The translations under genes were made by a program, and so were the position numbers. The notes under the pieces are model-generated. The model was given only the letters and a program-made list of their open reading frames with translations. It did not search any database and had not been told where the DNA came from. From Escherichia coli (GTDB lineage Bacteria; Pseudomonadota; Gammaproteobacteria; Enterobacterales; Enterobacteriaceae), in the NCBI RefSeq assembly GCF_030013205.1, contig NZ_CP122648.1: a DNA stretch of 64,000 bases; one strand, given 5' to 3'. Each line of letters starts with the position of its first letter. The stretch's first letter is position 1. Positions 7,733-13,131 of the stretch are shown in pieces.

Positions 7733-8650
7733 ATGCTTTTGGCCGGGAGTAGTTTACTGACGTTGCTCGATGATATCGCCACACTGCTGGACGATATCTC
7801 CGTGATGGGCAAACTGGCGGCGAAGAAAACCGCCGGTGTATTAGGGGATGACTTATCGCTCAATGCGCAACAAGTTTCAGGCGTGCGGGCCAACCGGGAA
7901 CTTCCCGTGGTCTGGGGCGTGGCGAAAGGATCGCTGATCAATAAAGTGATTCTGGTGCCGCTGGCGCTGATCATCAGTGCGTTTATCCCGTGGGCGATTA
8001 CGCCACTGTTGATGATTGGCGGCGCGTTTCTCTGCTTTGAAGGGGTAGAGAAAGTGCTGCATATGCTGGAGGCGCGTAAACATAAAGAAGATCCGGCGCA
8101 GAGTCAGCAGCGTCTGGAGAAGCTGGCGGCGCAGGATCCGCTGAAGTTTGAAAAGGACAAAATAAAAGGGGCGATTCGTACCGATTTTATATTGTCTGCG
8201 GAAATCGTCGCCATCACGCTGGGGATTGTGGCAGAAGCGCCGTTGCTTAATCAGGTGCTGGTGCTTTCAGGCATCGCGCTGGTAGTGACCGTGGGCGTCT
8301 ACGGTCTGGTAGGGGTTATCGTTAAGATTGATGACCTGGGGTATTGGCTGGCGGAAAAATCCAGCGCGCTGATGCAGGCATTAGGTAAAGGGTTATTGAT
8401 CATTGCGCCCTGGTTGATGAAGGCGTTATCGATTGTCGGCACGCTGGCGATGTTCCTCGTCGGCGGCGGGATTGTGGTACATGGTATTGCGCCGCTGCAT
8501 CACGCCATTGAACATTTCGCCGGGCAGCAAAGTGCAGTGGTGGCGATGATATTACCGACTGTTTTAAATCTGATTCTTGGTTTTATCATCGGTGGCATCG
8601 TGGTGCTGGGAGTGAAAGCAGTAGCGAAAATGCGCGGTCAGGCACATTAA
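7733..8650 (+). CDS. yedI: DUF808 inner-membrane protein
   Basis: 305-aa [35 protein letters not shown]... Confidence 0.9.
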
Positions 8651-8728
8651 TACTCGCACAGGCTATTATGCAAAATTTGCCATCTTAAACTAAGGTGAAC
8701 AAGTTTCACTCGAAAAAAGGAGGCGAGT

Positions 8729-8911
8729 ATGAGCTTTATGGTTAGTGAGGAAGTTACGGTTAAAGAGGGCGGCCCGCGGATGATTGTCACCGGATACTCC
8801 AGCGGTATGGTTGAGTGTCGTTGGTATGACGGTTACGGGGTCAAGCGGGAAGCTTTTCATGAAACCGAGCTTGTTCCGGGGGAGGGGAGTCGTTCTGCGG
8901 AAGAAGTTTGA
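8729..8911 (+). CDS. yodC: Small protein YodC
   Basis: 60-aa ORF, MSFMVSEEVTVKEGGPRMIVTGY..., with a GGAGG ribosome-binding site upstream. Confidence 0.8.
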   Translation: MSFMVSEEVTVKEGGPRMIVTGYSSGMVECRWYDGYGVKREAFHETELVPGEGSRSAEEV

Positions 8912-9081
8912 AAGGGTATCATTAACACCAGGCCGGATCACATCCGGCCTGGTGTGCCAATGCCTGCAATGAATGATAGTCGCGTCTTATCATGCCACCA
9001 TTATAAAATTATCGCTGTTTTGCGGTACGTTATCGCCGGGTTATGCCAGAATCATAAAAAAGCAGGTTGGGAGTCGTCAGG

Positions 9082-11606
<2,525 letters not shown>

Positions 11607-12464: not shown

Positions 12465-12507
12465 TCTAATTCAGCCTGACTGGTGGGAAACCACCAGTCA
12501 GAATGTG

Positions 12508-13131
12508 TTAGCGCATGTTGACAAAAATACCATTAGTCACATTATCCGTCAGTCGGACGACATGGTAGATAACCTGTTTATTATGCGTTTTGATCTTACG
12601 TTTAATATTACCTTTATGCGATGAAACGGTCTTGGCTTTGATATTCATTTGGTCGGAGATTTGAATGGTTCCCTGACCTGCCATCCACATTCGCAACATA
12701 CTCGATTCGGTTCGGCTCAATGATAACGTCGGCATATTTAAAAACGAGGTTATCGTTGTCTCTTTTTTCAGAATATCGCCAAGGATATCGTCGAGAGATT
12801 CCGGTTTAATCGATTTAGAACTGATCAATAAATTTTTTCTGACCAATAGATATTCATCAAAATGAACATTGGCAATTGCCATAAAAACGATAAATAACGT
12901 ATTGGGATGTTGATTAATGATGAGCTTGATACGCTGACTGTTAGAAGCATCGTGGATGAAACAGTCCTCATTAATAAACACCACTGAAGGGCGCTGTGAA
13001 TCACAAGCTATGGCAAGGTCATCAACGGTTTCAATGTCGTTGATTTCTCTTTTTTTAACCCCTCTACTCAACAGATACCCGGTTAAACCTAGTCGGGTGT
13101 AACTACATAAATCCATAATAATCGTTGACAT
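12508..13131 (-). CDS. rcsA: Capsule-synthesis transcriptional co-activator RcsA (LuxR-type HTH)
   Basis: 207-aa [42 protein letters not shown]... Confidence 0.95.

Follow-up and report, generated by a model that had tools for sequence, protein, structure and literature searches.

A palindrome between yodC and dgcQ of Escherichia coli is very probably the stump of a y-type REP, at the putative position of an ancestral terminator

Introduction

In Escherichia coli, the small stationary-phase gene yodC is followed on the same strand by dgcQ, the gene for a cellulose-regulating diguanylate cyclase, and the two genes are separated by a stable palindrome. What is this palindrome, and what could it do at the end of yodC? 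A preliminary description, drawn from the window alone (the whole 64,000-nucleotide stretch of E. coli contig NZ_CP122648.1 that was analysed), had favored an RNA stability hairpin or a protein-binding site over a canonical intrinsic terminator, with a possible influence on read-through into dgcQ.

Results

Structure of the palindrome

The yodC coding sequence (60 amino acids) lies at 8729–8911 on the + strand in the list of open reading frames, with its TGA stop codon at 8909–8911, and matching E. coli genomes annotate its product as a YodC family protein. The next gene, dgcQ (diguanylate cyclase), occupies 9082–10776 on the same strand and starts with GTG at 9082, according to the open reading frame list and the RefSeq annotation of matching genomes. 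The 27-bp palindrome ACCAGGCCGGAT-cac-ATCCGGCCTGGT is present in the window sequence at 8927–8953 with the 3-nucleotide loop that had been described, and its pairing runs 2 bp further on each side. The true stem is thus a perfect one of 14 bp and not 12 (8925–8938 with 8942–8955, + strand, around the loop CAC at 8939–8941). Direct reading of the sequence places 13 nucleotides (8912–8924) between the stop codon and the base of this stem and 15 between the stop codon and 8927, while the GTG of dgcQ lies 128 nucleotides after 8953 and 126 nucleotides (8956–9081) after the stem ends.

When folded as RNA in a 71-nucleotide context, the + strand reached −34.2 kcal/mol (z = −5.2; none of 200 shuffles was as stable) and the − strand −30.7 kcal/mol (z = −4.3); the hairpin folded alone gave −26.8 kcal/mol. 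The window contains four perfect stems of at least 12 bp with a 3–8-nucleotide loop, one of them of at least 14 bp, and the yodC palindrome is the longest. No perfect stem of at least 12 bp with such a loop occurred in 30 dinucleotide-preserving shuffles of the window. The yodC–dgcQ palindrome is real and non-random.

The element has the GC-rich stem-loop of an intrinsic terminator and lacks the 7–8-nucleotide U-rich tract that follows the stem of one. Past the stem, the + strand has the tail GCCAATGC and the − strand the tail TAATGATA, neither of which is a T-run, and a consensus scan of 8400–9400 found no terminator-like site on either strand. These tails and the negative scan bear out the earlier statement that no T residues follow the palindrome on either strand, and the missing U-tract excludes a canonical intrinsic terminator. 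A known Rfam RNA family at the locus was also excluded, as a search of 8000–10000 at permissive thresholds returned only sub-threshold chance matches (16–18 bits, against gathering thresholds of 47–100).

Several side observations were made in the same stretch. Across the whole window there are 16 perfect inverted repeats of at least 10 bp (3–8-nucleotide loops), against 0.4 expected from dinucleotide shuffles, and most of them are probably terminators. The 71-nucleotide fold contains an outer 6-bp helix, GGGUAU with AUGCCU (8914–8919 with 8960–8965), which flanks the hairpin across an internal loop and begins 3 nucleotides past the yodC stop; in E. coli FORC_028 the pairing is still possible via wobbles (GUGUCU). 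Each arm of the palindrome holds a Dcm site (CCAGG / CCTGG, 8928–8932 and 8948–8952), and the dcm and vsr genes lie about 2 kb away by synteny with K-12. The variants C8928T and G8952A touch the outer C of the Dcm sites, not the methylated inner C.

Relationship to the REPs of Escherichia

Some E. coli genomes gave a split and longer match to the locus. One of them, FORC_028, carries in an alignment with the window and K-12 a longer hairpin at the same site, CACCCGACCGGATGTGGCGCTCACGTCGCATCCGGTCGGGTG, followed by TTGCCTGATGCGACGCTATCGCGTCTTATCATGCCTAC. This long-allele pair is recognizable as a y-type REP and a z2-type inverted REP. FORC_028 and six other Escherichia lineages (E. albertii, E. 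whittamii, Escherichia sp. MOD1-EC7003, Escherichia sp. E1V33, and the representatives E69 and SCPM-O-B-8794) read ..GGCCGGAT(GT/AA)GGCGTTCACGCCGCATCCGGC.., then GCCTGATGCGACGCTGTCGCGTCTTATCATGCCTAC, and a full y REP, a linker and a full z2 inverted REP stand here in 6 of the 6 other lineages sampled; the orthologous sites in other Escherichia are all REPs. Compared with those lineages, the window allele has lost the 13-nucleotide apex of the y REP and about 11 nucleotides of the 5′ arm of the z2 REP. Beyond the palindrome (8925–8955), the window retains a linker at 8956–8974 (+ strand), which aligns with the linker (..GTGCCAGCGTCTGCATGGAAT..) of the other Escherichia y–z2 pairs, and a z2-type inverted REP remnant (GATAGTCGCGTCTTATCATGCCACC) at 8975–8999 (+ strand, placed by alignment), whose motif CGTCTTATCATGCC at 8983–8996 occurs once in the window. 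The palindrome is, very probably, the stump of a y-type REP, and the segment 8925–8999 a decayed BIME composed of y REP, linker and z2 inverted REP.

The y REP consensus used here is validated by the canonical copy at 35369–35402 (− strand) of the window, which matches it with one mismatch. The canonical y-type REP (GCCGGATGCGGCGTAAACGCCTTATCTGGCCTAC) lies directly downstream of a FliC/FljB flagellin gene, and the 271 bp around it have 2–29 matching places per E. coli genome; this is the equivalent of the fliC 3′ UTR region, where K-12 annotates the small RNA FliX. Of 5426 E. coli genomes, 5425 have at least 24–71 places each that match the 121-nucleotide long allele of the yodC locus, which, because of these many places, belongs to a dispersed REP/BIME family, while the short 31-mer is found at its own locus only, in 4146 of the 5426 genomes. 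The K-12 record NC_000913.3 has zero REP features annotated over 39 kb; the missing annotation at yodC is uninformative because none is given even in the fliC 3′ UTR.

The defining features of REPs have been given as a 20–50-nucleotide palindrome, a GTAG, an AA-GC bulge and high copy number (PMC8266576). The yodC element is a stem-loop palindrome of 31 nucleotides with a 14-bp stem (−26.8 kcal/mol), it is extragenic, and it is followed across a linker by an inverted REP (8925–8955, then 8975–8999, between yodC and dgcQ). Its descent is also that of a REP: the flanks and the stem foot are identical to, and positioned with, the full y REPs of the six lineages and of about 1214 E. coli genomes. 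The position directly 5′ of the palindrome where GTAG is expected reads CCAG (8928–8931, before GCCGGAT), and CCAG, GCAG or ATAG in relatives. The imperfect palindrome with AA-GC bulge, upper stem and loop (35 nucleotides in a y REP) has been lost from the window allele with the 13-nucleotide deletion; E69 and SCPM-O-B-8794 retain ATAAGGCG...CGCCGCAT. High dispersed copy number is absent from the single-locus 31-mer and present in the full-length allele family (at least 24–71 places per genome). On this comparison, REP remnant is the most fitting name for the palindrome. TnpA-REP (RAYT) needs both GTAG and the bulge to recognize and cleave its target (PMC8266576), and since both are absent, the short allele is predicted not to be a substrate.

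The BIME has also changed by gain of sequence. FORC_028 carries a 42-nucleotide duplication, and E. whittamii and E69 have a second BIME unit that bears a true GTAG. In these two lineages (at about 1560–1660 of the respective loci), the tandem BIME consists of a GTAG-y REP and a shortened inverted REP, located between the first BIME and dgcQ. It adds about 120 bp of intergenic sequence, and the GGTTATGCCA block, otherwise conserved upstream of dgcQ, is lost.

The yodC terminator outside Escherichia

A scan for the YodC protein with one genome per species gave 80 loci, and in 66 of the 80, from other Enterobacteriaceae, yodC is followed by dgcQ on the same strand. At about 55 non-Escherichia loci, a perfect GC-rich stem with a run of 4–8 T begins 0–12 nucleotides past the yodC stop, the typical stem being (A)AACGCCCGG-loop-CCGGGCGTT. 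This structure, which by its sequence is a canonical intrinsic terminator, occurs, among others, in Salmonella enterica subsp. arizonae and diarizonae, Citrobacter, Enterobacter, Kosakonia, Phytobacter, Trabulsiella, Lelliottia, Klebsiella grimontii, Cedecea and Buttiauxella. The consensus terminator scanner misses obvious terminators of Salmonella and Enterobacter, as their A-tract/T-tract pairs are absorbed into the stem, and the non-Escherichia terminators were therefore scored by a purpose-written script. Nine loci of the Citrobacter freundii complex have neither a terminator nor a REP after yodC; they share a conserved sequence (..TCTCAACCATTAGTTATATTTATCATTTTGGTGAGAATTATTTACTTGTCAGGC..) and have no dgcQ within 1.2 kb.

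By parsimony across the genera, the terminator would be ancestral and the BIME derived, the BIME having taken the place of the ancestral intrinsic terminator of yodC in Escherichia. The alignments show an ancestral Escherichia element that was, as judged from the sampled lineages, a full-length y REP. E. coli and Escherichia sp. MOD1-EC7003 share a 1-nucleotide insertion and several substitutions in the 3′ flank (GGC-AGTTGTG to GGCCTGGTGT), and because of these changes the stem foot is longer by 7 perfect pairs; MOD1-EC7003 is the closest sampled relative of E. coli with the extended foot. The same alignments show that the deletion of the 13-nucleotide apex came later, within E. coli, and left the short perfect hairpin that is now the majority allele.

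Variation of the hairpin among E. coli genomes

The yodC–dgcQ locus was found in 5361 of 5426 complete E. coli genomes. The perfect 14-bp stem is carried by about 2400 genomes (~44% of 5426), a short allele altered at one or more of the 31 nucleotides by about 1750 (~32%), and the long allele with intact REPs by about 1214 (~22%); the locus is absent or disrupted, for example by IS1, in about 65 (~1%). These shares are approximate, as three short BLAST queries were combined with sampled sequences and BLAST identity bands are a poor guide when a short query has its mismatches close to either end. The short and long alleles thus coexist, in 76% and 22% of genomes, and about 42% of short-allele genomes deviate from the perfect 31-mer.

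Some of the changes keep the stem paired and others do not. The K-12 variant C8928T produces a U.G pair on the + strand, and C8948T a G.U pair; A8942T falls in the loop-closing pair. True mismatches in the short allele result from C8926G, which is common, from A8937T, and from G8932A (A.C). Strain RMDEC465 combines C8928T with G8952A, by which pairing is restored as U-A, and it also has G8954A, a C.A mismatch in the second basal pair. Full compensatory series were seen at three pairs: 8928–8952 (C-G, U.G, U-A), 8932–8948 (G-C, G.U, A.C, A-U) and 8930–8950 (A-U, C-G). Among 16 distinct hand-picked alleles, 91% of cells were paired, compared with 31–37% with slid partners, both-sided change occurred at four pairs (7 cells), a level reached by 2 of 500 shuffles, and the covariation score exceeded that of all 500 shuffles; these counts are illustrative only, because the rows were chosen by hand as representatives of variants. 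Compensatory changes in palindromes can also arise through template switching or REP gene conversion, without selection. An invariant central 10 bp, which was seen in the first five variants, was refuted by A8937T, G8932A and C8948T.

Conservation of the stem had been proposed as a check on the hairpin. It is no more than moderate: about 42% of short alleles are altered, and the stem tolerates true mismatches, even though compensatory pairs are present. The wobble pairs favor the yodC sense strand in most alleles. With C8928T, the K-12 hairpin folds at −24.2 kcal/mol on the + strand (U.G) versus −20.1 kcal/mol on the − strand (C.A mismatch), and the long allele of FORC_028 at −40.0 versus −32.0 kcal/mol; the canonical y REP of the window is biased in the opposite direction.

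Some loci carry disrupted genes. Among the orthologous loci, dgcQ is interrupted by an internal stop in 07B21CPO001 and frameshifted in BN01, and yodC has an internal stop in FDAARGOS_1299. In E. coli KMi029, the match to the window from about 8770 stops 70 nucleotides into the query and is followed by IS1A, ybcL and ybcM; its yodC, hairpin and dgcQ are, as read from this junction, disrupted or rearranged.

Published 3′ ends near the hairpin

In the curated Term-seq data of Adams et al. 2021, the K-12 interval 2,028,000–2,028,499 is free of listed 3′ ends in LB at OD 0.4, LB at OD 2.0 or M63, and the same coordinate search does find the neighboring ends of dsrA and dsrB. As to the 3′-end mapping that had been suggested for yodC, the published K-12 tables place no end at the yodC hairpin, a result that hinges on yodC expression in these conditions. 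The SMRT-Cappable-seq and RepRanger supplements make no mention of yodC or dgcQ, and a literature search found no paper linking transcription of the two genes. At the 3′ end of dsrB (12466–12511 of the window, + strand) there is a hairpin with a 21-nucleotide imperfect inverted repeat (CTAATTCAGCCTGACTGGTGG / CCACCAGTCAGAATGTGTTAG) and no T-run. It coincides with a strong Term-seq 3′ end at K-12 2024594, − strand (Adams et al. 2021), so U-less hairpins in this neighborhood can mark stable 3′ ends. The 126 nucleotides downstream of the yodC stem (8956–9081) contain 26 C and 31 G, and the first 65 of them 15 C and 11 G; because this sequence is not C-rich, a nearby Rho-dependent stop is not evident.

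Discussion

A putative exonuclease barrier at the end of yodC

The REP origin of the palindrome and the replacement of a terminator are the two elements that the present analysis adds and that the earlier reading had missed. The yodC mRNA would include the element as a hairpin of about −27 kcal/mol. Since it has no U-tract, the hairpin would not release RNA polymerase, and some read-through toward dgcQ would be expected. It would block 3′-to-5′ exonucleases (PNPase, RNase II), as other REPs and U-less 3′ stem-loops do, and would protect the yodC segment both in transcripts running on toward dgcQ and in those with an end or a cut at some point downstream. With its base 13 nucleotides past the stop codon, the stem may also slow the termination of YodC translation. 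The hairpin may well be a non-terminating RNA barrier to 3′-exonucleases in the yodC 3′ UTR, an assignment that we hold tentatively. Of the functions proposed earlier, the RNA stability hairpin stays the best guess, in view of the very stable sense hairpin and of the precedent that REP ancestry provides: the REPs between malE and malF are mRNA stabilizers (Newbury et al. 1987, as cited in PMC6061677). The explanation as a whole, a REP stump at the position of an ancestral terminator that acts as an exonuclease barrier, is on balance probable.

The main rival to the exonuclease barrier is that the palindrome is decaying selfish or repeated DNA without a function of its own, its symmetry having come from palindrome mutation (template switching, apex deletions). 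This is possible but rather doubtful. The internal deletions in both REPs of the BIME and the 42-nucleotide duplication of FORC_028 are what decay typically leaves, the stem varies as much as the flanking intergenic DNA, unpaired variants included, long and short alleles coexist in 22% and 76% of genomes, and the published K-12 Term-seq tables have no 3′ end at the yodC hairpin. However, 7 of the 7 Escherichia lineages sampled have retained a hairpin at precisely this position, the E. coli stem became stronger and not weaker, the wobbles favor the sense strand in most alleles, and a hairpin as stable as this one (−27 kcal/mol), in a 3′ UTR that is transcribed, will influence the decay of the RNA whatever its origin. 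The hairpin could also act as a brake on translation: a stem near the stop codon would stall the terminating ribosome, trigger mRNA cleavage and tmRNA tagging, and lower YodC output, as for the nrdAB REP. REPs less than 16 nucleotides from a stop codon are reported to reduce translation (Liang, Rudd and Deutscher 2015, as quoted in PMC12306157). The 13-nucleotide spacing is within the limit quoted there, and the 7-bp foot extension of E. coli and MOD1-EC7003 is what shifted the stem base from about 20 to 13 nucleotides past the stop, but the basal pairs that bring the stem into range are the most variable ones, with C8926G common and a U.G at pair 4 in K-12, and we regard such a brake as unlikely.

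Partial termination was considered as well, in which the hairpin, alone or with Rho, stops some of the polymerases and replaces the lost terminator as insulation of dgcQ. The element does sit at the exact position of the ancestral terminator, BIMEs are reported to attenuate transcription (Espeli et al. 2001, as cited in PMC6061677), and there is a Rho-dependent region inside dgcQ (K-12 2027287). Yet that region is about 850 nucleotides downstream, the sequence after the stem is not C-rich, no U-tract is found on either strand and no terminator-like site in 8400–9400, and the K-12 Term-seq tables list no 3′ end here, which together leave this role very unlikely. Least probable is a site that works as DNA, either an operator for a dimeric dgcQ regulator or a BIME-type site for gyrase, IHF or TnpA-REP. 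A perfect dyad of 31 bp, lying 126 bp before dgcQ, would suit such a site, and genome-structure roles have been reported for BIMEs (PMC8266576). The half-sites, however, are separated by 3 nucleotides in the short allele, whereas the long allele and all other Escherichia have 16, a difference that makes a fixed-spacing protein operator unlikely; the GTAG and bulge needed by TnpA-REP (PMC8266576) are absent; the element originates from a repeat and not from a conserved operator; and genera that have dgcQ and lack the element carry a terminator here. The protein-binding site that had been offered beside the stability hairpin is accordingly weakened, with half-sites 16 nucleotides apart in about 22% of E. 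coli and in the other Escherichia. The influence on read-through into dgcQ that had also been raised is plausible.

Implications for yodC and dgcQ

If the exonuclease-barrier hairpin lets transcription through, then expression of yodC and dgcQ would be coupled in Escherichia and not in Salmonella or Enterobacter, which would matter for comparing the regulation of c-di-GMP and cellulose between these genera. A further reading is that the swap of a terminator for a U-less REP turned yodC and dgcQ from insulated genes into a read-through unit, in which yodC transcription would feed into dgcQ and the hairpin, its pairing preserved by compensatory changes, would in its long or short allele set the ratio of products; this we consider quite unlikely. 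The locus also offers a clean, datable case in which many enterobacterial genera share a conserved intrinsic terminator and one genus has a BIME in its position. This BIME then decays and is remodeled, with a longer stem, a deleted apex and two alleles side by side in E. coli. The palindrome itself is ordinary: because its odd perfection is explained as that of a truncated REP, listing it as a novel operator or regulatory site would be a mistake.

Comparison with known systems

The malE–malF REPs, like the yodC element, are stable U-less hairpins between genes on the same strand, with an expected block to exonucleases that favors the upstream gene. They differ in that the yodC hairpin is known from its sequence and fold, and co-transcription of yodC and dgcQ is a candidate only. 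The protective 3′ stem-loops of Rho-dependent transcripts have the same terminator-like energy and geometry, the same lack of uridines after the stem and the same position directly past the coding sequence; here, unlike in those, there is no mapped 3′ end in Adams et al. 2021 and the downstream sequence is not rich in C over G. The ribosome-stalling REPs near stop codons (as described in PMC12306157) share with this element a stem close to the stop, here 13 nucleotides past the yodC UGA, whereas the basal pairs by which it qualifies vary among strains and the effect on yodC is a candidate only.

In Salmonella, Citrobacter, Enterobacter, Kosakonia and other genera, the intrinsic terminator of yodC (AAAACGCCCGG-loop-CCGGGCGTTTT) is likewise a GC-rich hairpin after yodC and before dgcQ, but it has 4–8 T and an unrelated sequence, and the E. 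coli hairpin has neither. Compared with an E. coli y REP in a y–z2 BIME, the palindrome differs in that it has no 13-nucleotide apex, no AA-GC bulge and no GTAG, and in its perfect stem, its foot longer by 7 bp and its single-copy 31-mer. It has in common with such a REP the foot GGCCGGAT...ATCCGGC, the extragenic location in a 3′ UTR, the z2 element past a linker, and positional orthology with the full y REPs of other Escherichia and of 22% of E. coli.
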